NCBI RefSeq assembly: GCF_965641715.1
Contig: NZ_OZ282455.1
DNA from: Escherichia coli
Lineage (GTDB): Bacteria > Pseudomonadota > Gammaproteobacteria > Enterobacterales > Enterobacteriaceae
DNA: 64,000 nucleotides
Direction: 5' to 3' (one strand)
Shown piece by piece: positions 429-56,988 of the stretch; position 1 is the first letter of the stretch, and every line of letters starts with the position of its first letter. The position numbers were made by a program, and so were the translations under genes. The notes under the pieces are model-generated. The model had not been told where the DNA came from. It saw only the letters and a list, made by a program, of their open reading frames with translations, and searched no databases.

Positions 429-2387
429 ATGCCTGTAACGAAGTGTGAACCAGAAACCACCCGCAAAGCAAGCCGTAAATCTGCAAAAACGCAGGAAACA
501 GTCCTGTCTGCCCTGCTGGCGCAGACGGAGGAAGTGAGCGTGCCGCTGGCCTCACTGATTAAGTCACCGCTGAATGTGCGCACGGTGCCGTATTCTGCGG
601 AGTCCGTCAGCGAACTGGCAGGGTCCATTCAGGGCGTCGGACTGCTGCAGAATCTGGTCGTGCATACCCTGCCTGGTGAGCGCTACGGTGTCGCCGCAGG
701 TGGTCGCAGACTGGCAGCACTCAATATGCTGGCTGAGCGTGGAATCATTCCGGCTGACTGGCCTGTCCGCGTGAAAATTATTCCGCAGGAACTGGCGACG
801 GCTGCATCGATGACCGAGAACGGTCATCGCCGGGATATGCACCCTGCCGAACAGATTGCCGGATTCCGCGCAATGGCGCAGGAAGGCAAAACAGCGGCAC
901 AAATCGGTGATTTGCTGGGCTATTCACCCCGCCACGTTCAGCGAATGCTGAAACTGGCAGACCTTGCGCCTGTCATCCTTGATGCGCTGGCAGAAGACCG
1001 CATCACCACAGAGCACTGTCAGGCGCTGGCGCTGGAGAACGACACCGCGCGTCAGGTGCAGGTGTTTGAAGCTGCCTGTCAGTCGGGATGGGGCGGAAAA
1101 CCGGAAGTACAGACCATTCGTCGTCTGGTGACCGAAAGTGAAGTGGCGGTGGCGGGGAACACTAAATTCCGCTTCGTGGGGGCTGATGCCTTCTCGCCAG
1201 ATGAACTGCGCACTGATTTGTTCAGCGACGATGAGGGTGGCTATGTGGACTGTGTTGCGCTCGATGCCGCCCTGCTGGAAAAACTCCAGGCTGTTGCAGA
1301 GTACCTTCGGGAAGCTGAGGGCTGGGGATGGTGTGCCGGACGCATGGAGGCCGTTGGTGAGTGCCGTGAAGATGCCCAGGCATACCGCAACCTGCCGCAG
1401 CCGGAAGCAGTGCTGACGGAGGCGGAAGAAGAACGCCTGAACGAACTGATGGCACGTTACGACGCACTGGAAAACCAGTGTGAGGAATCTGACCTGCTGG
1501 AAGCAGAAATGAAGCTGATGCGCTGCATGGCGAAGGTCAGAGCGTGGACGCCGGAGATGCGTGCCGGAAGCGGTGTGGTGGTGTCCTGGCGTTATGGCAA
1601 CGTGTGTGTCCAGCGTGGTGTGCAGTTGCGCAGCGAGGATGACGTGGCTGACGACGCTGACCGCACGGAACAGATGCAGGAGAAAGCGTCAGTGGAGGAA
1701 ATCAGTCTGCCACTGCTGACGAAAATGTCTTCCGAACGCACGCTGGCAGTCCAGGCGGCACTCATGCAGCAACCGGACAAATCTCTGGCACTGCTGGCAT
1801 GGACGCTCTGCCTGAATGTGTTTGGCAGCGGGGCGTACAGTAGTCCCGCCAGAATTTACCTGGAATGTGGGCATTACTCACTGACCAGCGCTGCGCCGTC
1901 AGGGAAGGAAGGTACCGCATTCATGGCGCTGATGGCAGAGCACTTTCGCCTTGCTGCCCTGCTGCCGGATGAATGGGAACGGGACATGACGACGTTCCTG
2001 TCACTCAGCCAGGAGGTGCTGTTATCCCTGCTCAGTTTCTGCACTGCATGCAGCATCCACGGCGTTCAGACCCGTGAGTGTGGTCACACGTCACGCAGTC
2101 CGCTGGACTCGCTGGAAACCGCCATCGGCTTTCACATGCGCGACTGGTGGCAGCCGACAAAAGCAAACTTCTTCGGACACCTGAAAAAGCCGCAGATTAT
2201 CGCAGCCCTGAATGAGGCAGGACTGTCCGGTGCCGCACGGGACGCGGAGAAGATGAAGAAAGGTGATGCGGCTGAACATGCAGAGCACCATATGAAAGAC
2301 AACCGCTGGGTTCCAGGCTGGATGTGTGCACCACATCCACAGACAGATGCCACTGAACGCACCGATAACCTGGCTGATGCCGCCTGA
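429..2387 (+). CDS. ParB-like nuclease domain protein (leading-region, 652 aa)
   Basis: Long ORF; N-terminal region has ParB/Srx-like signature (LQNLVVH...GERY.VAAGGRRLAAL); AAGGGG RBS 6 nt before the ATG at 429; lies upstream of psiB as in IncF/IncI leading regions. Confidence 0.8.
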   Translation: MPVTKCEPETTRKASRKSAKTQETVLSALLAQTEEVSVPLASLIKSPLNVRTVPYSAESVSELAGSIQGVGLLQNLVVHTLPGERYGVAAGGRRLAALNMLAERGIIPADWPVRVKIIPQELATAASMTENGHRRDMHPAEQIAGFRAMAQEGKTAAQIGDLLGYSPRHVQRMLKLADLAPVILDALAEDRITTEHCQALALENDTARQVQVFEAACQSGWGGKPEVQTIRRLVTESEVAVAGNTKFRFVGADAFSPDELRTDLFSDDEGGYVDCVALDAALLEKLQAVAEYLREAEGWGWCAGRMEAVGECREDAQAYRNLPQPEAVLTEAEEERLNELMARYDALENQCEESDLLEAEMKLMRCMAKVRAWTPEMRAGSGVVVSWRYGNVCVQRGVQLRSEDDVADDADRTEQMQEKASVEEISLPLLTKMSSERTLAVQAALMQQPDKSLALLAWTLCLNVFGSGAYSSPARIYLECGHYSLTSAAPSGKEGTAFMALMAEHFRLAALLPDEWERDMTTFLSLSQEVLLSLLSFCTACSIHGVQTRECGHTSRSPLDSLETAIGFHMRDWWQPTKANFFGHLKKPQIIAALNEAGLSGAARDAEKMKKGDAAEHAEHHMKDNRWVPGWMCAPHPQTDATERTDNLADAA

Positions 2388-2441
2388 TGAACAACCACAC
2401 CGCCCCGCCGGAGACGGGGCGGCAGCAAGGGAGATACCGTG

Positions 2442-2876
2442 ATGAAAACTGAACTGACCCTGAATGCCCTGCAGTCCATGAACGCACAGGAATATGAAGA
2501 TATCCGTGCTGCGGGAAGCGATATGCGCCGTAATCTCACTCACGAGGTGATGCGTGAAGTGGACGCACCGGCTAACTGGATGATGAATGGCGAGTATGGC
2601 AGTGAGTTCGGGGGCTTTTTCCCCGTCCAGGTTCGTTTCACGCCAGCCCACGAACGTTTCCACCTGGCATTATGTTCGCCGGGAGACGTCTCTCAGCTCT
2701 GGATGCTGGTTCTGGTGAATTGTGGTGGACAGCCTTTCGCCGTCGTTCAGGTGCAACATATCTTCACGCCTGTCGCTATCAGTCACACGCTGGCGCTTGC
2801 CGCGACACTTGATGCGCAGGGGTACAGTGTTAACGACATCATCCATATCCTGATGGCAGAAGGAGGTCAGGCATGA
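2442..2876 (+). CDS. psiB: plasmid SOS inhibition protein PsiB
   Basis: 144-aa product [27 protein letters not shown]...ILMAEGGQA matches my recollection of PsiB along its length; stop overlaps psiA start. Confidence 0.9.
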
Positions 2877-3592
2877 GCGCACGTTCACGGGCACTGATCC
2901 CCCTCAGCGCAGAGCAACAGGCCGCCATGCAGGCTGTGGCTGTCACCGAACAACGTCGTCGTCAGGGACGCACACTTTCAGCATGGCCTTATGCCAGCGC
3001 TTTCTTTCGCTGCCTGAATGGCAGTCGCCGGATTTCGCTGACCGATCTCCGCTTTTTTGCTCCTGCGCTGACGAAGGAGGAATTTCATGGCAACCGTCTC
3101 CTGTGGCTGGCTGCCGTGGATAAACTGATTGAAAGTTTTGGTGAAGTCTGTGTTCTTCCCCTGCCATCCGATGCGGGGCATCGTCTGTTCCCGTCCGTTC
3201 CTTTTCGTGAAGGTGAGCGGCGTCGTCAGAAAACCACGCTGACAGAGCAGAAATACAGCCGCCAGCGGGAACGTGAGGCAGAACGACGGGAACTGGAATA
3301 CCAGACATGTTTTGCTCAGGCGCAGATTGACCTTGCGTTTCATACTCCCGCCACGGTCGGAAGCTGGTTGTCCCGCTGGTCTGGTGTTGTTGAGGAGCAT
3401 GATCTGGAAACGATTTTCTGGGGGTGGTGCGGGCGTTTTCCATCACTGTCATCATTTGACCGGTTTTTCTGGCAGGAGGAACCACTCTGGCGGCTGATTT
3501 TTGAAGCCGGTGAGGCCGGTCGTGGTGCACCGGTACAGGTACGTGCACTTGAGCAGTGGATGATCCCGAACAAGCTGGAGAACGCAATATGA
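2873..3592 (+). CDS. psiA: plasmid SOS inhibition protein PsiA
   Basis: 239-aa ORF immediately after psiB with ATGA overlap; size and position as in F/IncI psiB-psiA operon. Confidence 0.8.
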
Positions 3593-4199: not shown

Positions 4200-4647
4200 T
4201 TTTACGCAGGGACACGCCGATCATGATCGTTTCATATCAGGGGTGGTCTGGAGGTCATGCGGCGTGTCCTCTGCACTCGCCGGAATAAGGAAGTCGCCGG
4301 CGGCTCCGCTTTTACCCGGCCATGCGGGGCATGGCCTTGTGGGTTTTCAGCTCTGTGGCCTCAGCGTCGTGTGCGGGCTGTGCCGTGCCTCCATCTTAGC
4401 CGGGCTGGCAGGGATGCAAGGGTACGCTTCGCCGCTGCGGTCACCCGGTCCCTCCTTCCCGTCTGCCGTGATTTTCCGGTCGTTCACCCGCTCAGATTTC
4501 GCGGTCTCACCCTCCAACTCCCGCCAGCCGTGTGCGTCAGGCTGCGGCTTCCCTTGCGCCCTGTGCATCCCCGCCTTATCGCCCGGCTTTTATGGAGGCA
4601 CGGCACCGCCCGGTGCCGCAGAACATGTGACTATGGAGGATTCGGGA
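4200..4647. promoter_or_regulatory. GC-rich structured leader upstream of ardA; candidate single-strand promoter region
   Basis: Roughly 450 bp of GC-rich sequence with no convincing coding signal (it only appears as an in-frame extension of the ardA ORF); inference from the known ssDNA-promoter arrangement upstream of leading-region genes. Confidence 0.3.
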
Positions 4648-5148
4648 ATGTCTGTTGTTGCACCTGCTGTATACGTTGGAACCTGGCACAAATACAACTG
4701 TGGAAGTATCGCCGGACGCTGGTTTGACCTGACCACGTTTGATGATGAGCGCGACTTTTTCGCCGCCTGCCGTGCTCTTCACCAGGATGAAGCCGATCCT
4801 GAACTGATGTTTCAGGATTATGAGGGATTCCCGGGGAATATGGCCTCTGAATGCCATATCAACTGGGCCTGGGTTGAAGGCTTCCGCCGGGCACGGGATG
4901 AAGGCTGCGAAGAGGCTTATCGTCTCTGGGTGGATGATACCGGTGAGACGGATTTTGACACCTTCCGCGATGCCTGGTGGGGCGAGGCTGACAGTGAGTA
5001 GGCTTTTGCGGTTGAGTTCGTCAGTGATACCGGCCTGCTGGCTGACGTGCCGGAGACGGTGGCGCTCTATTTTGACTATGAGGCGTATGCGCGGGATTTA
5101 TTCCTGGACTCCTTCACCTTTATTGACGGTCATGTGTTCCGTCGGTGA
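4648..5148 (+). pseudogene. ardA: antirestriction protein ArdA interrupted by an in-frame amber codon at codon 118 (4999-5001)
   Basis: [33 protein letters not shown]... matches remembered ArdA; ORF stops at TAG 4999-5001 but the same frame continues AFAVEFVSDTGLLADVPETVALYFDYEAYARDLFLDSFTFIDGHVFRR* to 5148, giving the 166-aa ArdA length if the TAG were CAG. Confidence 0.8.
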
Positions 5149-5496: not shown

Positions 5497-5860
5497 CCCC
5501 TGTCGCGCCGGAAACGGCGCTCCCTGCACACCTGACGGTGTGTAAGGCCACTGCGCCTGATGGCGCAGTCAACCCTTCCGCCGCCACCCCTGCGGCCTGT
5601 TTCCCGCTGTGGACTTTCCGGGGGCTGGAGTAACCACATCCCGTTTCAGCAGTCTAGGGGAAGATATACCGTCCACAAAATTTTTAGCCATAAACCCGGC
5701 AAAAAATTTTGCGTCCGCCCCCGGACAGCTGCCCCGTGACGTGGTGACGGACGCCCCATCGGAAAGGTCCACTGCGGGGAGAAACCCCGAAGAAGTGGAC
5801 GGCAGAAGGGGCTTTCGCCCCTCCGGGGAGCAACCGGTCGGCCCGGCGACCTGATTCAGC
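5497..5860 (+). repeat. Frpo-like structured repeat, copy 1 (candidate ssDNA promoter)
   Basis: About 360 bp highly similar to 8372-8725; contains inverted repeats CACACC..GGTGTG and CTGCGCC..GGCGCAG; sits directly upstream of an ORF start. Confidence 0.6.
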
Positions 5861-5876
5861 AGAAGGAGACGTTTTC

Positions 5877-6311
5877 ATGACAGTCAGCAGCACGATTTCC
5901 GTTTTTTGCCGCGACGGGGTGTTCCGTACCGTTTACTGCCACCTGCACGGGGAGCCGACCTGGAACGGTCGCATCCTGCATACCCACTATGCCACCGGTC
6001 AGCAGGCCGAAGCCCTGGTTGAACACGGTGATATCCGTTGCCTCGGTCCCCGTTGCGACAAACCCGCCGGGCATACGCTTCAGAACCCGGTGGACGGTGT
6101 GACGGCTTATTACGGACGTGACAGTGGTTTCCGGATGGACAGTGAGGCGCGTGAGTACCGTTCTTTCAGGGAGGCTATTGCCACTGAAAGCACTGAAGAG
6201 GTGCGCTTCCATTATGTGTTCATCGACGGCTACTGGAAGGTGATGTACCGCACGCCGGAAGGCTGGAAGATGAAAGCGCTCGCGCTGGCACTGCGTCGCT
6301 GTCCGAAATGA
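5877..6311 (+). CDS. hypothetical protein (144 aa) downstream of Frpo-like repeat 1
   Basis: Clean ORF with GGAGA RBS; no family recognised. Confidence 0.6.
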   Translation: MTVSSTISVFCRDGVFRTVYCHLHGEPTWNGRILHTHYATGQQAEALVEHGDIRCLGPRCDKPAGHTLQNPVDGVTAYYGRDSGFRMDSEAREYRSFREAIATESTEEVRFHYVFIDGYWKVMYRTPEGWKMKALALALRRCPK

Positions 6312-6317
6312 AAAAAA

Positions 6318-6338
6318 GGCAGGGCGATAAACCCTGCC
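6318..6338 (+). terminator. hairpin after orf144 (weak terminator candidate)
   Basis: GGCAGGG-CGATAAA-CCCTGCC stem-loop preceded by an A-run; no strong T-tract on plus strand. Confidence 0.3.
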
Positions 6339-6404
6339 TCTCTCCGCCGGCGCTTCCCCGCCAGGAAGTCCGGCATCTCAATCACTATCTATGGAGATTA
6401 TGCC

Positions 6405-6671
6405 ATGAGACCATCAATTATCTTCGCAACCGCCGAGTATGTAAAGCGTCTGCGTGAAGAGTGCCTGCGGGAGAATAAACCCCTGCACCGCCATACCCGC
6501 TTCAGACGTCAGGAGCTGGCACAGGATGAGATTAACCCGGACGTCCTGGCGATGAGCGGCCATATCGCCAGACGCTGCAGTGAGCAGAAGCGGGTGCGTA
6601 TCCCCGCTATGAAAGTCAGCGAATGGGGCCACCTGCTCCGCGCGCTTGAAATTGAGCGGGTCTGCCACTGA
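6405..6671 (+). CDS. hypothetical protein (88 aa)
   Basis: ORF preceded by GGAGA; basic, no family recognised. Confidence 0.4.
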   Translation: MRPSIIFATAEYVKRLREECLRENKPLHRHTRFRRQELAQDEINPDVLAMSGHIARRCSEQKRVRIPAMKVSEWGHLLRALEIERVCH

Positions 6672-6735
6672 TTAACCCTTGCCGTCTGCCTGTGCAGGCG
6701 GCAGGATACGTTCAGACATCTCACCAGGAGGAACC

Positions 6736-7662
6736 GTGAGTAAGAAGAAAACCACCACGACGCCCACGCCGCATGATGCCGCGTTCCGGTCGTTCCTGGC
6801 GAATCCCGACGTCGCCAGAGATTTTCTGGAACTGCATCTTCCGGCGGAGTACCGGCAGTTGTGCGACCTGTCCACGCTGAAGCTGGAACCCGCCACCTTT
6901 GTTGAGCCGGACCTGCATCAGTACGCCAGCGATATCCTCTGGAGTGTGAAAACCACCGGGGGTGAAGATGGCTATGTTTATACGCTCATCGAGCACCAGA
7001 GCACCGAAAATCTGTACATGCCTTTCCGCATGTTACGTTACAGTGTGGCGGCGATGCAGAGACATCTGGAGCAGCACAAAACGTTGCCACTGGTCATTCC
7101 GGTGCTGTTCTATCACGGTGAGCGCAGCCCGTACCCGTACAGCATGAACTGGCTGGACTGTTTTGAGAATCCGGCGCTTGCGGCTAAAATATACACAAAG
7201 CCGTTTCCGCTGGTTGATATCACTGTCGTTGATGACAATGAAATCATGAACCATCGCCGGATGGCCGCACTGACGCTGCTGATGAAGCATATCCGCCATC
7301 GTGACATGATGGAGCTGCTGGACAAACTCCCGCAGGTCATGGTGGAAATTTCAGACGAGCAGGTGCGTGTTCTGATTCATTACATCGTTAACGCAGGGGA
7401 CTCTGTATCACCGGAATTTATGCGGGCGCTGGCTGAGCGTCTGCCGCAGCATGAGGATAAACTGATGACTATCGCAGAACGTCTTGAGCAAAAAGGTCGC
7501 CAGGAAGGCAGGATGGAAGGACGCATGGAAGGACGCATGGAAGGAGCGCTTGAAAAAGCCCTGGCTATTGCGTGCCAGCTTCAGAAAATGGGGATGACGC
7601 CGGAGCAGATTAAGCAGGCTACCGGACTTTCCGATGACGAACTGAAGAAAATCACTCACTGA
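6736..7662 (+). CDS. Rpn-family (YhgA-like, PD-(D/E)XK transposase_31) recombination-promoting nuclease
   Basis: HDAAFRSFL...LIEHQS...PLVIPVLFYHGE motif block typical of Rpn/YhgA-like proteins; GTG start after AGGAGG chosen; C-terminal tail carries GRMEG tandem repeat. Confidence 0.75.
   Translation: MSKKKTTTTPTPHDAAFRSFLANPDVARDFLELHLPAEYRQLCDLSTLKLEPATFVEPDLHQYASDILWSVKTTGGEDGYVYTLIEHQSTENLYMPFRMLRYSVAAMQRHLEQHKTLPLVIPVLFYHGERSPYPYSMNWLDCFENPALAAKIYTKPFPLVDITVVDDNEIMNHRRMAALTLLMKHIRHRDMMELLDKLPQVMVEISDEQVRVLIHYIVNAGDSVSPEFMRALAERLPQHEDKLMTIAERLEQKGRQEGRMEGRMEGRMEGALEKALAIACQLQKMGMTPEQIKQATGLSDDELKKITH
7495..7547 (+). repeat. 15-bp tandem repeat inside rpn encoding GRQEG-RMEG-RMEG-RMEG
   Basis: ggacgcatggaagga repeated in tandem; seen directly. 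Confidence 0.8.
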
Positions 7663-7671
7663 GTAAACATC

Positions 7672-7702
7672 ACAGCCCGGCAAAATGCCGGGCTTTTTTG
7701 TC
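7672..7702 (+). terminator. rho-independent terminator after rpn
   Basis: AGCCCGGC-AAAAT-GCCGGGCT hairpin followed by TTTTTTG. Confidence 0.75.
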
Positions 7703-7723
7703 AGCAGGAGCAGAGCAAACAGC

Positions 7724-7882
7724 ATGACGATTGCAGAACGTCTTATTCAAAAAGGCGCACTTGAAGTGGCGCGGGAAATAGCCTGCCGGCTGCGGGATAT
7801 GGGCTGGACGCCGGAACGGATTCAGGAGGCAACCGGACTTTCCGGTGAAGAACTGAAAAAGCTGTTTCCTGATGAGCAGTAG
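7724..7882 (+). CDS. standalone RpnS-like small protein (paralogue of the Rpn C-terminal tail)
   Basis: 52-aa product MTIAERLIQKG...TPERIQEATGLSGEELKK aligns with Rpn residues from the internal Met (MTIAERLEQKG...TPEQIKQATGLSDDELKK); DNA also visibly similar. Confidence 0.5.
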   Translation: MTIAERLIQKGALEVAREIACRLRDMGWTPERIQEATGLSGEELKKLFPDEQ

Positions 7883-7912: not shown

Positions 7913-8164
7913 TCACACATCCTCTGCCGTTTCCCCCAGTTCATTTTCCAGTCGCCTGATGATATCTGCCTTACGCATCCCCTGCATGTGAGGCAGCAGG
8001 TCACGGACTGAAAGTGCCTGGGTGGTCCTCCAGACGGTGACGTCCACCTGTTCCGCATTTTCCCAGGCGTGCCATGTTCTCTGCGTCACGCCAAATTCTC
8101 TGGCCGCTTTTTCGCGTGACCAGAGCATGCTTTTTCGCCAGATTCGCAGTTCCCAGCCGGTCAT
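7913..8164 (-). CDS. XRE-type helix-turn-helix transcriptional regulator
   Basis: 83-aa ORF with WSREKAAREFGVTQRTWHAWEN helix-turn-helix-like segment; one of only two leading-region protein genes on the minus strand. Confidence 0.55.
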   Translation of the reverse strand: MTGWELRIWRKSMLWSREKAAREFGVTQRTWHAWENAEQVDVTVWRTTQALSVRDLLPHMQGMRKADIIRRLENELGETAEDV

Positions 8165-8179
8165 AAAACACCTTTAAAA

Positions 8180-8266
8180 AAGTGAAAAAACTTCACTTTA
8201 TTTTATCATCATAATCACCAAATTAACGCGATAAATAAGTGTGAAAAAGTGAAGAAATTTCACTTT
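8180..8266. promoter_or_regulatory. two palindromic operator-like sites (AGTGAA-N4/5-TTCACT) in the promoter region of the HTH gene
   Basis: Perfect inverted repeats at about 8181-8198 and 8248-8264 in an AT-rich region immediately upstream of the minus-strand HTH gene. Confidence 0.5.
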
Positions 8267-8371
8267 TTTTGCTTGTAAATGTCGTGCGGTTTTCTCTGTT
8301 TTCACCTGTGCGGGAGTGGTGTGCCAGTGACCACCACATGCCATTGTTGTGCCGTCGTTTTTCTTCAGTCG

Positions 8372-8725
8372 CGCCGTATGCGGCGCTCCCTGCACACCTT
8401 ACGGTGTGTAAGGCCACTGCGCCTGATGGCGCAGCTGTCTCTGCCTGTCTGCCGCCGCACTGCGGCCTGTTCTCCGCAGACGGACTTTCCGGGGGTACAT
8501 ACATGACCACATCCCGTTTCAGTCGTCCAGGGGAGAGATGTACCAGCCACAAAACTTTTTGCCGCAGGCGTCAAAAACTTTTGCGTCTGCCCCCGGACAA
8601 CTGCCCCGTGACGTGGTGAGCGTCCCCCGTCGGAAAGGTCCACTGCGGGGAAATCCCCGAAGACCCGGACGGCAGAAGGAGCTTCGCTCCTCCGGGAAAT
8701 GACCTGGCTGACCCGGCAGTCGTGA
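8372..8725 (+). repeat. Frpo-like structured repeat, copy 2 (candidate ssDNA promoter)
   Basis: Paralogous to 5497-5860 including the GCGCTCCCTGCACACCT.ACGGTGTGTAAGGCCACTGCGCCTGATGGCGCAG core; ends just before an ORF start. Confidence 0.6.
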
Positions 8726-8740
8726 CGATGAGGAGACAAT

Positions 8741-9592
8741 GTGATGAATCAGACTTTACCCACTGCTGACCTGAATACTGCCGGCACGACAGATGTTATT
8801 CCGTCTGTGGCTATCGACCGCATCATCGCGCAGCGTAACGAAGGTATTGCACTGTTCATGCAGGCGATGGAATGCCTGGCGACAGCGCGCAAGATTCTGC
8901 TCGATGCGTCAGGTGATATTTTTCTTTACGGGTTTGAAGACTGCGTGACTGATTCCGTTCGTCGCATAGATAAACCGGAAGAAGCGAAAAGGAATATCAC
9001 CCGTCTTGCCGACCGGAAAATCTGGGATCGCCTGATGACAGATACGGGCATGTACACCTTCATGAGTTCATGCCAGCGTGATGAGTGGAACAGCCAGCTG
9101 ATGAGCGACACCTGTCCTGAAATCACCCTGGACAATGTACTGGCAACATTCCGCCATCTGAATGCCTGCAAGATGCAGACATTTGAACAGGGACTGATTG
9201 ATGTCTACCGGAAATTGTCATGGGATTACAGAACCAATAATCCCTGCCGTCTGGGTAAGAAAATCATTATTGAAAACCTGCTGTACCGCTGGAGTAACGG
9301 GCGTGTGACGCTGGACTGCAGCGGACGGGAGGCACTGGATGACCTGGTACGTCCGTTTTATCTGCTGGAGGGGCGCAACGTTCCTGACTTCAGGAACAGT
9401 ATCGGGGCGCAGTATGGTGAATTTCTCGGGAACGGCGACAATGTCGGTAAGCTGTTAGAAGGGGAATATTTTACGGTGCGTGGCTACCAGAAAGGGACCG
9501 TACACATTGTCTTTAAGCGTTCTGACCTTGTTGAAAAACTGAATGATATTATTGCACGGCATTATCCAGGTGCATTGCCGCCACGAGTCTGA
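8741..9592 (+). CDS. hypothetical protein (283 aa) downstream of Frpo-like repeat 2
   Basis: ORF with GAGGAG RBS; no family confidently recognised. Confidence 0.6.
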   Translation: MMNQTLPTADLNTAGTTDVIPSVAIDRIIAQRNEGIALFMQAMECLATARKILLDASGDIFLYGFEDCVTDSVRRIDKPEEAKRNITRLADRKIWDRLMTDTGMYTFMSSCQRDEWNSQLMSDTCPEITLDNVLATFRHLNACKMQTFEQGLIDVYRKLSWDYRTNNPCRLGKKIIIENLLYRWSNGRVTLDCSGREALDDLVRPFYLLEGRNVPDFRNSIGAQYGEFLGNGDNVGKLLEGEYFTVRGYQKGTVHIVFKRSDLVEKLNDIIARHYPGALPPRV

Positions 9593-9602
9593 TTAAACAG
9601 AA

Positions 9603-9636
9603 AAGCCCTGGTATTTATGCCGGGGCTTTTTTTTCT
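9603..9636 (+). terminator. rho-independent terminator after orf283
   Basis: GCCCTGG..CCGGGGC hairpin followed by TTTTTTTT. Confidence 0.7.
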
Positions 9637-9677: not shown

Positions 9678-10019
9678 TCAATTGTTGTTCATATCGATGC
9701 CATCTTTCCTGCCTGAATCTGTCTTTTTAGGTGCTGTTTTAGAGGAAGAACGGCGGGATGGTTTTTTCGATTCTGCTTCCCGAATAATGTCACGAAGTGC
9801 CTTCTCTCCTACTTCATACCCTGCATTTTTGAGCGTGTCACGAACATCTGCCAGTGTATAACCCTTTGTCCTTACCAGGACAATAATGTCATCACGAATG
9901 GCATCAAGAAAATCACGCAATGTTTTCCGTTGAGCGGTGAGATCTGGCAATTCCGATAAAGCAGCTTTTGCCAGCTGGATGTCATCATCTGAGTAAAATT
10001 TTTTAGAAGCCATTGGCAC
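9678..10019 (-). CDS. hypothetical protein with basic Ser/Lys-rich C-terminal tail
   Basis: 113-aa ORF from the six-frame track, divergent from nikA across oriT; no family recognised. Confidence 0.45.
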   Translation of the reverse strand: MPMASKKFYSDDDIQLAKAALSELPDLTAQRKTLRDFLDAIRDDIIVLVRTKGYTLADVRDTLKNAGYEVGEKALRDIIREAESKKPSRRSSSKTAPKKTDSGRKDGIDMNNN

Positions 10020-10149
10020 TTTCTCTCCGTTTCATGTTGAAGTCTGATTTTATCATCAAAAACTGACTCCTGGCAGGGCTGCGCCCTGCCTCTGCCGTCT
10101 GCATAAGACTATGATGCACAAAAATAACAGGCTATAATGGCCTGAAAAA

Positions 10150-10246
10150 CGGGACAGGATGTGCAATTGTAATACCGTCACACGCGACGCTATTACAATT
10201 GCCATCTGGTCAGGGCTTCGCCCCGACACCCCGTAAGGAGCCTGAA
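10150..10246. other. oriT: origin of transfer (oriT) region
   Basis: Imperfect inverted repeat AATTGTAATACCGTCACACGCGACGCTATTACAATTG immediately upstream of nikA; position and sequence consistent with my recollection of R64 oriT; nick site not resolved. Confidence 0.6.
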
Positions 10247-55313: not shown

Positions 55314-56988
55314 TATTGCCTCCTGACGGGAAAGTCGGGGTAATGATGATCACAAGCGTGCTGCGTTCATTTTTCCCGGTTTGTGAACCACCAAATAATG
55401 GATTTGCTGGCGTAAATGTACCGGCTTTACTTGTCGTCGTATTGTTCTGATCGAAACCAGTAACGACAAGTGATTGCCCTTCTTTCAGATTGACCTTCTG
55501 GCTCAGTGAACGCAGTTTGGTATATGGCATTTCGATGTAACTGTTTCCGTCTTTTGACGTAAAGCTACGGATAGTTGGGGGATCAGACAGATTAAAGTTC
55601 ATCTGCAACTGGAGATTGCCTGTTTTCTGAATTAAAGGCAGCAGGGTCATATTGAATCCAGTGGTGATCATGCCCGGTGTTAATGTTGTTGTTGCTCCTA
55701 CATCCGTAGTCGTAGTTGTTGCTGACTGGGCGACGTAAACTGTCTGATCTGCCATCTGGATAGGTACCGGCGTCAGGTTTGTGACAGTGCTTTCTTGTGA
55801 AGTTACAACGCTGACATCGCCTTGTTCACTCAGTGCTTTAATCAGAAGGCTGGAACCGCTGAATTTGGCGGCATTCCCTGTTGCCGTATCCAGAATTGAT
55901 ACGCCTGCAGATGTAGCGCCTGTAAAATCTCCGCTTGCATTGTTCAACGTTGCTCCGGCGGAATGTAGCGATTTATAAACAAGGTTCCAGTCCAGACCGA
56001 ACTGTTCGTTTCTGGTATTGCTGACGCTCAGAACCTGTACGTTCAGGGCTACCTGGCGGTTCATAATACTGTTTTGTTCGTCTACATATCGTGCGACGGC
56101 TTCCTGGACAGCTGGAGTATCAGTGACTGTCAGCGTTGAGCTCGATGCAGATAACCAGTAACGGCCTTTTTCTGGTGTCAGCATTGCTTCAATAGTTTTC
56201 CGGATATCTTCATACAGATCGTATTCCTGACCAACGGTTGTGCTCTGAGAGGACGTTGCATCACCGGATGCTGAGTTATCCTGGCCTCCTGTTGCCCCCA
56301 TTGTGCTTGTTGAGCCAGAGCTGACACTGGAACTGCTGCTGGTTTTGGTGTTCAGCATATGAAGTGGATACGTTCTGGTTTCAGTCAGATAGAATACAAT
56401 CCGACCATTATCCATGCGCCAGTACAGACCACTCCGGCTGGCCATCAGATCCAGAAGACCATTGATATCTCCCTGCCACATGAGGTTATTCAGCGTTAAT
56501 GGCTGAGTGGAGGTAGCCATTGTTGTGCTGCCCAGGCTGCTTAACGGTAGACGTCCATTTTCATCTGGTGCTGGTAGTGTTCCTGTCATCTGGCGGGTAG
56601 CGCCTCCTTCAAGAGTTGAATTGGCTGCGTCAGGCGTGATGATCACAGGGATGCCGCATACGGCAGTAATACGTTGCCCCAGTTCCTGCAGAGTGATCTC
56701 TCCTTTTCTTGCCTGCGTGATGTAGCAGGCTGGAGCTGTTTGTTTTTTCTCTCTTGATACCTGAGCGACCGGAACAGGGTTTATCCATTGATTATCGAGC
56801 CAGGTAAGAGCCTGCGATTTACGGGCCGAAAGGGCTGATACCTTTTCCCGTGCATGTGCTGAGTCTTCCTGTGCTTTTTTCTGCATTTTGTTGATTTCGC
56901 TGAAAGTACATCCGGAGATGGAAAGAGCGACGGCGATCATGCAGGGGAGCACCGCCAGCTTCATTGAACGCTGGTGTGATTTTTTCAT
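55306..56988 (-). CDS. pilN: PilN secretin-like outer-membrane lipoprotein
   Basis: 560-aa ORF with lipobox ISGC and secretin-like C-terminal region. Confidence 0.75.
   Translation of the reverse strand: MKKSHQRSMKLAVLPCMIAVALSISGCTFSEINKMQKKAQEDSAHAREKVSALSARKSQALTWLDNQWINPVPVAQVSREKKQTAPACYITQARKGEITLQELGQRITAVCGIPVIITPDAANSTLEGGATRQMTGTLPAPDENGRLPLSSLGSTTMATSTQPLTLNNLMWQGDINGLLDLMASRSGLYWRMDNGRIVFYLTETRTYPLHMLNTKTSSSSSVSSGSTSTMGATGGQDNSASGDATSSQSTTVGQEYDLYEDIRKTIEAMLTPEKGRYWLSASSSTLTVTDTPAVQEAVARYVDEQNSIMNRQVALNVQVLSVSNTRNEQFGLDWNLVYKSLHSAGATLNNASGDFTGATSAGVSILDTATGNAAKFSGSSLLIKALSEQGDVSVVTSQESTVTNLTPVPIQMADQTVYVAQSATTTTTDVGATTTLTPGMITTGFNMTLLPLIQKTGNLQLQMNFNLSDPPTIRSFTSKDGNSYIEMPYTKLRSLSQKVNLKEGQSLVVTGFDQNNTTTSKAGTFTPANPLFGGSQTGKNERSTLVIIITPTFPSGGNNG

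Follow-up and report, generated by a model that had tools for sequence, protein, structure and literature searches.

The closest described counterparts of the element analysed here are found in the plasmids F, ColIb-P9 and pESBL. As relayed by the papers that cite the original work, F Frpo in its single-stranded form attracts RNA polymerase, and a primer RNA is synthesized there (Masai and Arai 1997), and ColIb-P9 carries three homologous ssi repeats (Bates et al. 1999). [quoted passage not shown] 2023, PMC9849209). The most detailed picture comes from pESBL (PMC12672017, 2025). According to this report, which includes RNA-seq, six leading-region operons are up about 500-fold at most at 15 min post-mating, all six start sites have been mapped by 5' RACE, and the induction is prolonged in a uvrD recipient, a host with persistent single strands. 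The ssi1-3 elements of pESBL are classified there as 'class 1' ssDNA promoters. Like F Frpo, they are reported to work on single-stranded and not on duplex DNA, with a start inside the hairpin.

The window, i.e. the whole stretch of 64,000 nucleotides of Escherichia coli DNA that was analysed (contig NZ_OZ282455.1), holds the leading region of a plasmid of the IncI complex, beside oriT and nikAB, since its gene order matches that of annotated relatives, of ColIb-P9 and of pESBL-EA11. The 1.5 kb around the ygfB locus finds a 100% match in pRKI3099a, an E. coli plasmid (IncI-gamma/K1, MOBP, MPF_I), and the locus occurs at 95% identity or more in about 1900-2000 IncI-type plasmids of Escherichia, Salmonella, Shigella and Klebsiella, nearly all of which are predicted to be conjugative. 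The order in the annotated relatives is ssb-parB-like-psiB-psiA-ardA-ygcA-ygdA-rpn-ygeA(-)-ygfB-yggA(-)-oriT-nikA-nikB, and the leading regions of ColIb-P9 and pESBL-EA11 have a gene order identical to this pRKI3099a/pHU590 type. In the series ssb-psiB-ardA-ygcA-ygfB-oriT-nikAB, the genes lie on the plus strand and are directed to oriT. The features to which the following text refers are listed below, each with the evidence that defines it.

5502-5865, minus strand: second copy of the element (Frpo2/ssi2 of ColIb-P9), 5' of ygcA (orf144, 5877-6311); repeats, BLASTN and MAFFT
8366-8694, minus strand: ssi1/Frpo1-type class 1 ssDNA promoter element; match to the ColIb-P9 reference
8368-8434, minus strand: conserved group of three small hairpins, located 3' in the element as read on the transferred strand; repeats, fold and consensus helices 9-11
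8448-8676, minus strand: long imperfect hairpin of about 230 nt; fold with DNA parameters
8496-8529, minus strand: candidate promoter hexamers on the non-template arm; suggested by the layout
8730-8735, plus strand: Shine-Dalgarno sequence GAGGAG, 8 nt before ATG 8744; sequence
8744-9592, plus strand: ygfB, coding for a DUF4942 protein; Pfam PF13708 and annotated relatives
9601-9634, plus strand: intrinsic terminator of ygfB; GC-rich stem followed by T8
10143-10230, strand not applicable: inverted repeat of the oriT type with the nick region, lying between yggA and nikA; sequence

The oriT-type repeat at 10143-10230, directly followed on its right by the annotated genes nikA and nikB, shows on which side of the plasmid the leading region lies; the nick position within it is presumably the one given in the R64 literature. 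The minus strand of the window is the template of the plus-strand leading-region genes, ygfB included, and we take it, from established knowledge of R64 and ColIb-P9, to be the transferred strand. The transfer arrow described for pESBL agrees, the equivalent of the minus strand being the transferred one in that report (PMC12672017).

On its sequence, the element at 8366-8694 is ssi1/Frpo1, the one nearest to oriT among the three class 1 ssDNA promoters of the IncI complex, which have already been described. Its minus strand is the entry 'ColIb P-9 plasmid, Frpo1, AJ238399.1:1459-1787' of Samuel et al. (2024, Supplementary file 4), in whose naming the copy at 5502-5865 is 'Frpo2' and the copy 5' of ssb is 'Frpo3'. 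It is the reference member of the Frpo/ssi class 1 family, and there is nothing new in the element itself. The segment 8368-8725 is 99.2% identical to ColIb-P9 37850-38207, directly upstream of the DUF4942 gene, and equally to pESBL-EA11 68571-68928, likewise directly upstream of a DUF4942 gene. In both plasmids, the element occupies the same position between ygeA and ygfB, with the same downstream gene; the differences amount to a few substitutions and to the host plasmid, which is here IncI-gamma/K1 instead of IncI1.

When 8368-8725 was compared with the whole window by BLASTN, a single other copy was found at 5502-5827 (81.5% over 335 columns, E = 2e-83), a similarity well above what chance would give. 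The first-pass annotation, which had recognized a second Frpo-like repeat here, was right in this respect. The mean column identity of the two window copies in a MAFFT alignment is 85%, and a third copy is located upstream of ssb, just outside the window (pRKI3099a locus L002 2958-3283). Direct-repeat blocks link 5502-5568 to 8368-8434 (94%) and 5697-5756 to 8569-8628 (87%), with further collinear blocks joining 5502-5790 to 8368-8658. The first of these, 8368-8434, is the best-conserved block between the two copies; the two short inverted repeats that the annotation ascribed to a near-identical core turn out to be three small hairpins, all inside this block, and a long imperfect hairpin is present in addition. 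The structured repeat covers 330-360 nt at 8366-8725. Its limits according to the published ColIb-P9 reference are 8366-8694, and the similarity between the window copies is weak past 8694 and fades by about 8725, so that the limits initially proposed (8372-8725) were essentially correct, as was the distance of about 15 bp to the reading frame orf283, measured here as 16-19 nt.

The relationship with F is more distant. The alignment shows homology to F Frpo1 (ssiD) and Frpo2 along the whole element, and the F elements share with it the long hairpin, an A/T-rich tip, the TGGAC box and the orientation to oriT, as well as the terminal GGGAGCGC...GGCGCGAC hairpin. The identity reaches, however, just about 74-78% over a 111-nt core by BLAST, and the cargo differs: F Frpo elements precede ygeA/ygeB and ssb-psiB, whereas the window element precedes ygfB.

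The gene downstream has a simple anatomy. The open reading frame ends at 9592 and may start at GTG 8741, which gives 283 aa, or at ATG 8744, which gives 282 aa; the latter is the annotated start in RefSeq and pHU590. The product probably has 282 residues instead of the 283 first assigned. The gene is called ygfB or DUF4942 in pHU590, pRKI3099a, ColIb-P9 and pESBL, and the pESBL protein is identical to the window YgfB at 279 of 282 residues. The good ribosome-binding site noticed earlier corresponds to GAGGAG at 8 nt from ATG 8744, and the strong terminator to 9601-9634, with an RNA fold of -25.7 kcal/mol (z = -6.0) followed by T8; a simple terminator scanner did not flag this segment. No other gene lies between the element and the terminator. 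Among the genes oriented for transcription from the transferred strand, ygfB is the one closest to oriT on the leading side, at a distance of about 0.5-1.4 kb. Six operons are named in the main text of the pESBL report, and ygfB is not among these names (PMC12672017). Since ygfB is the sole gene between ssi1 and a terminator, we infer that it corresponds to the ssi1 operon. The results obtained with pESBL should also transfer to the window, because element and protein are 99% identical and ygfB stands alone before its terminator.

The element folds with a clear strand bias. Folded with DNA parameters, the segment 8360-8745 reaches -109 kcal/mol (z = -8.5) as minus strand and -89.6 kcal/mol (z = -5.0) as plus strand. 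The minus strand is the more stable one in all eight elements of the family, by 7.6-19.4 kcal/mol, and its fold contains 5-11 G-T pairs, against 0-7 in that of the plus strand. In the long hairpin 8448-8676, the 5' arm (8569-8676) serves as template and runs on into the ygfB template, the 3' arm (8448-8564) stands for the non-template strand, and the apical loop is at 8564-8569. Next to it, the three small hairpins have their loops at 8376-8381, 8398-8403 and 8423-8428, and the corresponding helices 9-11 are 87.5-100% paired across the family alignment.

A single common structure with F Frpo1 and Frpo2 was obtained with RNAalifold, in which 90.5% of the cells are paired. Pairs that have changed on both sides and still pair amount to 27 of 106, against 5-7 in slid controls, where the pairing partners were shifted by 1-3 columns, and the observed values were equalled in none of 500 column shuffles. 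Between the elements of IncI and those of F, compensatory changes have thus kept the long hairpin.

The element 8366-8694 and ygfB very probably form an ssDNA-promoter-gene architecture. This promoter identity is based on homology, on the strand-biased fold, on covariation, on the gene anatomy and on the induction published for 99% identical DNA. By analogy with the pESBL class 1 promoters, whose DNA is 99% identical, the early-expression architecture proposed in the first-pass annotation also appears well founded. During conjugation, the minus strand would enter the recipient with its 5' end first, from oriT at about 10.15 kb, and ygfB followed by the element 8366-8694 would be among the first sequences to arrive. 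The single-stranded element would fold into the hairpin of about 230 nt, the stem of which would imitate duplex promoter DNA. Host sigma-70 RNA polymerase would then start on the 5' arm, transcribe ygfB toward oriT and end at 9601-9634. The same RNA may prime complementary-strand synthesis, a step proposed for this copy by analogy with F Frpo. Once the complementary strand is made, the hairpin would be lost and the promoter switched off, so that the new host would receive a brief pulse of YgfB. The element is an experimentally mapped, textbook-grade example of gene expression by conjugative plasmids ahead of the conversion to double-stranded DNA.

Some details of this promoter may be read from the layout of the hairpin. 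TGGACG (8529-8524) lies inside a fully paired stem segment of the 3' arm, and a bulged TCATGTATGTA segment (8506-8496) is found 17 nt downstream of it. TGGAC and the unpaired segment downstream are positionally conserved across the eight elements. The second hexamer is poor, with an agreement with TATAAT at just 2-3 of 6 positions. We infer that TGGACG and the bulged TCATGTATGTA could be the -35 and -10 boxes, a pre-melted -10 being expected at that place. Given the arrangement of the arms, transcription must begin on the 5' arm and proceed away from the loop to 8744.

It has to be considered whether single-strand initiation is the main role of the element, with an RNA that primes the complementary strand and ygfB expression as a by-product, a view which we hold possible though somewhat doubtful. 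Such elements were first found as ssi sites, primer RNA has been reported at F Frpo (Masai and Arai, again through citing papers), and the three dispersed copies, all facing the incoming 5' end, resemble priming sites of the Okazaki type. A function in priming does not, however, exclude a promoter function. Within 20-70 nt of each copy begins a gene that has a ribosome-binding site, the operons behind the elements respond with strong induction, and early protein production in F depends on Frpo. Moreover, the copy studied here would prime just about 1.5 kb.

The protein expressed from this promoter belongs to a family about which little has been written. The sole Pfam hit of YgfB is DUF4942 (PF13708, E = 3.2e-50, model positions 5-189 of 190), and in the literature searched this domain receives passing mentions only, with no function assigned. 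The search with NCBIfam profiles gave noise only. No PADLOC defence model was matched, a 15-bit match of 36 residues to a '2TM effector' being judged as noise, and sequence and profile searches against the PDB returned nothing meaningful. The first-pass annotation had described orf283 as a protein of unknown function and had called for a homology and fold search; this search, which yields DUF4942 only, with no relative among solved structures, agrees with that description.

An exhaustive search, with E values up to 0.001, gathered 1998 cluster representatives of the family. Among the best 150 of these, the full-length ones mostly have 255-300 aa, and a few have 460-560 aa. In the long relatives, from metagenomes and phages, a SAM-dependent methyltransferase with the motifs EPSAGxG and NPPF follows at the C-terminus. 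The same DUF4942 module makes up the N-terminal half of orphan DNA methyltransferases of the N6-adenine type from phages and plasmids, for instance phiPSA1 gp22 (Pseudomonas phage), P12026 gp32 (Marinomonas phage) and phrog_6263, to the N-terminal 260-290 residues of which YgfB aligns over nearly its full length. YgfB differs from them in being without their C-terminal methyltransferase domain (EPSAGxG ... NPPF). Judged from the alignment, it ends before that domain, and the 'methyltransferase' label given in databases is unjustified; SAM motif I, motif IV and a methyltransferase HMM match are absent from YgfB, for which DUF4942 is the only Pfam hit. Since the sequence ends where the SAM-dependent methyltransferase domain starts, YgfB would not be able to methylate by itself.

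A partnership between YgfB and the ssDNA methylase M.EcoGIX was also considered and found to be unsupported, the DUF4942-fused methyltransferase being of another class with a reversed motif order. The sole similarity found between the methyltransferase domain of the fused relative P0223 and the M.EcoGIX-type methylase of the plasmid covers 38 residues at the SAM-binding motif. It also counts against the partner idea that F has an M.EcoGIX homologue, yet no DUF4942 gene was found in its segment 36-68 kb, which includes the leading region. The F protein encoded at 55565-56341, tried as a YgfB homologue, has no similarity to it. The absence of a DUF4942 gene from the searched 36-68 kb of F suggests that YgfB is not universally needed.

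A structural model could be obtained by prediction. The AlphaFold model from the single sequence was unusable (pLDDT 38) and was replaced by a model from 99 homologous sequences, with a pLDDT of 88 and a pTM of 0.78. The predicted fold has a long helix at the N-terminus, a bundle of helices and an alpha/beta domain at the C-terminus. Among solved structures, no relative of this model was found, and in the AFDB it is matched by its own family alone. In the 99 aligned homologues, W94, L158, D200, H254 and N267 are invariant, and D90, S159, N165, R203 and R217 nearly so, D90, R203 and R217 being conserved in more than 90%. H254 and N267 are located on a predicted strand-strand-helix unit. This pattern of conservation suggests a defined binding or catalytic site, and not a simple DNA mimic. 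With a pI of 6.0, YgfB is not acidic as DNA mimics are; compared with the known anti-restriction families (ArdA, ArdB/KlcA, Ocr-like DNA mimics), it gives no match and is not strongly acidic. ArdA and KlcA/ArdB resemble YgfB in their neighbourhood, in their strand and in the logic of early expression, and differ from it in having no sequence or fold similarity.

The family is widely distributed on plasmids. DUF4942 homologues are encoded in at least 5000 plasmid records, of which 92% are predicted to be conjugative, and the family, labelled uncharacterised, ranks 24th by size among the leading-region-enriched families, with 2171 members. A MOBF plasmid and pOXA-48-like IncL plasmids have homologues at 40-50% identity in their leading regions, where these point to the relaxase gene and have KlcA/ArdB-type antirestriction, RadC/JAB, toxin-antitoxin and ssb genes as neighbours. 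[quoted passage not shown] Upstream of the DUF4942 gene of the MOBF plasmid, the folds of the two strands are equally good (-112.7 vs -118.3 kcal/mol); upstream of that of the pOXA-48-like plasmid, where only the minus strand was folded, its z value is a modest -3.3.

This distribution also bears on the distinctly unlikely possibility that YgfB is a relaxosome or transfer accessory protein of the donor, and not an establishment factor of the recipient. Its gene lies indeed about 0.5-1.4 kb from oriT, beside yggA (MobC-like) and nikAB. However, the promoter is reported to be silent in duplex form, ygfB is oriented for transcription from the transferred strand, the MOBF and IncL homologues stand among antirestriction genes and ssb, and not in mobilisation operons, and DUF4942 also occurs in phages, fused to methyltransferases.

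That YgfB is instead an establishment or anti-defence factor, which would act on DNA or on modification/restriction enzymes, has in our view slightly less than an even chance of being correct. The anti-defence part of this proposal would follow from guilt by association. What the evidence on YgfB supports is limited to a burst on entry and to a module that is elsewhere joined to DNA methyltransferases. A more specific version, which we consider somewhat unlikely, is that YgfB/DUF4942 represents a new anti-restriction or restriction-alleviation factor, a stand-alone version of the module by which orphan methyltransferases recognize DNA or enzymes, or else an enzyme itself. As such a factor, it would be the earliest plasmid protein produced from the incoming single strand, and might shield the plasmid because it occupies the DNA, or because it diverts or blocks the modification-restriction enzymes of the host. 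The enzyme alternative is based on the invariant Asp200, His254 and Asn267 and on Asp90, Arg203 and Arg217, conserved in more than 90% of the homologues. IncI plasmids are major carriers of ESBL genes, and the YgfB family is also found on pOXA-48-like carbapenemase plasmids. Defining the role of YgfB would fill a gap in anti-defence and establishment, and could offer a target against plasmid spread.

The strand bias described above bears on another question, namely whether the repeat acts as RNA, its structure being a 5' leader that controls the translation or stability of a ygfB mRNA made from an upstream duplex promoter. The plus strand, and with it the mRNA leader, does fold better than its shuffles (z = -5.0), and a weak sigma-70-like site is present upstream on that strand, at 8182-8209. 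Such sites are nevertheless at chance level (2 found for 1.8 expected), no acceptable sigma-70-like duplex promoter was detected between 8210 and the start codon at 8744, and no Rfam family matches the element, as expected of a DNA element. The minus strand is the more stable one in eight elements out of eight, and the G-T pairs of its fold become C-A mismatches in the RNA sense. In addition, the published induction is confined to the single-stranded phase (PMC12672017). An RNA leader is thus highly unlikely as the explanation, and an ssDNA promoter remains the preferred reading of the element; the structure may have some role in RNA all the same.

It is hardly credible that the repeats are remnants of a mobile module, recombination sites or protein-coding: a plasmid without the 9.7 kb between two repeats is consistent with recombination (PMC3817090) and several ORFs overlap the element (109-124 aa for those crossing it, and a 65-aa RefSeq ORF at 8198-8395), but recombination follows from repetition and is not a function, the segment is GC-rich and has ORFs on either strand, the 65-aa ORF touches the edge of the element only, and the substitutions preserve base pairing, unlike a coding constraint.

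The class 2/3 promoters of pESBL, located 5' of ardA and klcA and 5' of M.EcoGIX, follow the same principle of a hairpin on the transferred strand as the class 1 element of the window. They have no sequence similarity to it, BLASTN retrieving the two class 1 copies only. In the window, ardA is also preceded by a strand hairpin of this class 2/3 kind, at 4374-4612.

Upstream of ardA, the leading region holds a hairpin, which is listed here with the other features in window coordinates.

4374-4612: inverted repeat upstream of ardA (4648-5148); 32-nt arms, 88% complementary, spacing 175 nt
6679-7662: Rpn/YhgA-like recombination-promoting nuclease gene, within 6679-7882
7913-8164, minus strand: ygeA, a divergent HTH gene
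8166-8270: AT-rich segment with palindromic repeats, between ygeA and the ssi1 element
8198-8395, minus strand: 65-aa "hypothetical protein" (RefSeq annotation), extending into the small hairpins of ssi1
9678-10019, minus strand: yggA, adjoining oriT
10143-10230: oriT-type region, with inverted repeat AATTGTAATACCGTCACACGCGACGCTATTACAATT and CTGAAAAACGGGACAGGATGTGC flanking

The interval 4340-4650, 5' of ardA, folds at -77.3 kcal/mol (z = -4.7) on the minus strand and at -67.2 kcal/mol (z = -2.6) on the plus strand. The hairpin sequence closely resembles candidate "Frpo' 4" of Samuel 2024. A class 2 ssDNA promoter has been reported 5' of ardA in the IncI plasmid pESBL-EA11 (PMC12672017), and the 4374-4612 inverted repeat fits it.

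Outside the window, two DUF4942 genes (the family of ygfB, next to the class 1 ssDNA promoter element ssi1) have the following surroundings.

pOXA-48-like IncL plasmid (locus L012), 6130-6995, minus strand: segment upstream of its DUF4942 gene, reading …CATCAGACACTAGCGATAGCCCGAAACCCC…GGCGGAGCTGCCAGGCTTTGCCTGGCTAGCGGAGTG…
Metagenome contig (locus L009), within 432-3124: DUF4942-methyltransferase fusion, 559 aa

The IncL segment resembles the 3' part of the Samuel 2024 candidates "Frpo* 4" and "Frpo* 5"; judging from this sequence likeness, a hairpin element of another kind may thus precede DUF4942 in other backbones. Immediately 5' of the fusion gene is another gene that matches N6_Mtase faintly, and an H-NS-like gene also adjoins the fusion.

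The palindromic repeats between ygeA and ssi1 consist of AAAAAAGTGAAAAAACTTCACTTT and a partner, 88% complementary, and this AT-rich segment probably serves as the ygeA operator or promoter. It contains the sole plus-strand sigma-70-like site (8182-8209). Several further ORFs of 109-124 aa cross the ssi1 repeat on both strands; these, and the 65-aa ORF as well, seem to be fortuitous reading frames of a structured, GC-rich stretch.

In its minus-strand reading, the 10143-10230 region presumably matches the R64 nick region and includes a putative nick site. Many records label yggA [quoted passage not shown]. Given that the gene adjoins oriT, this name seems to have been confused with that of the mobilisation protein MobC.

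The Rpn/YhgA-like product carries a (MEGR)n repeat at its C-terminal end. Downstream of its gene, 7685-7882 is a truncated duplicate of the gene's 3' end, as seen in the repeat pair 7541-7649 versus 7752-7860 (75%).
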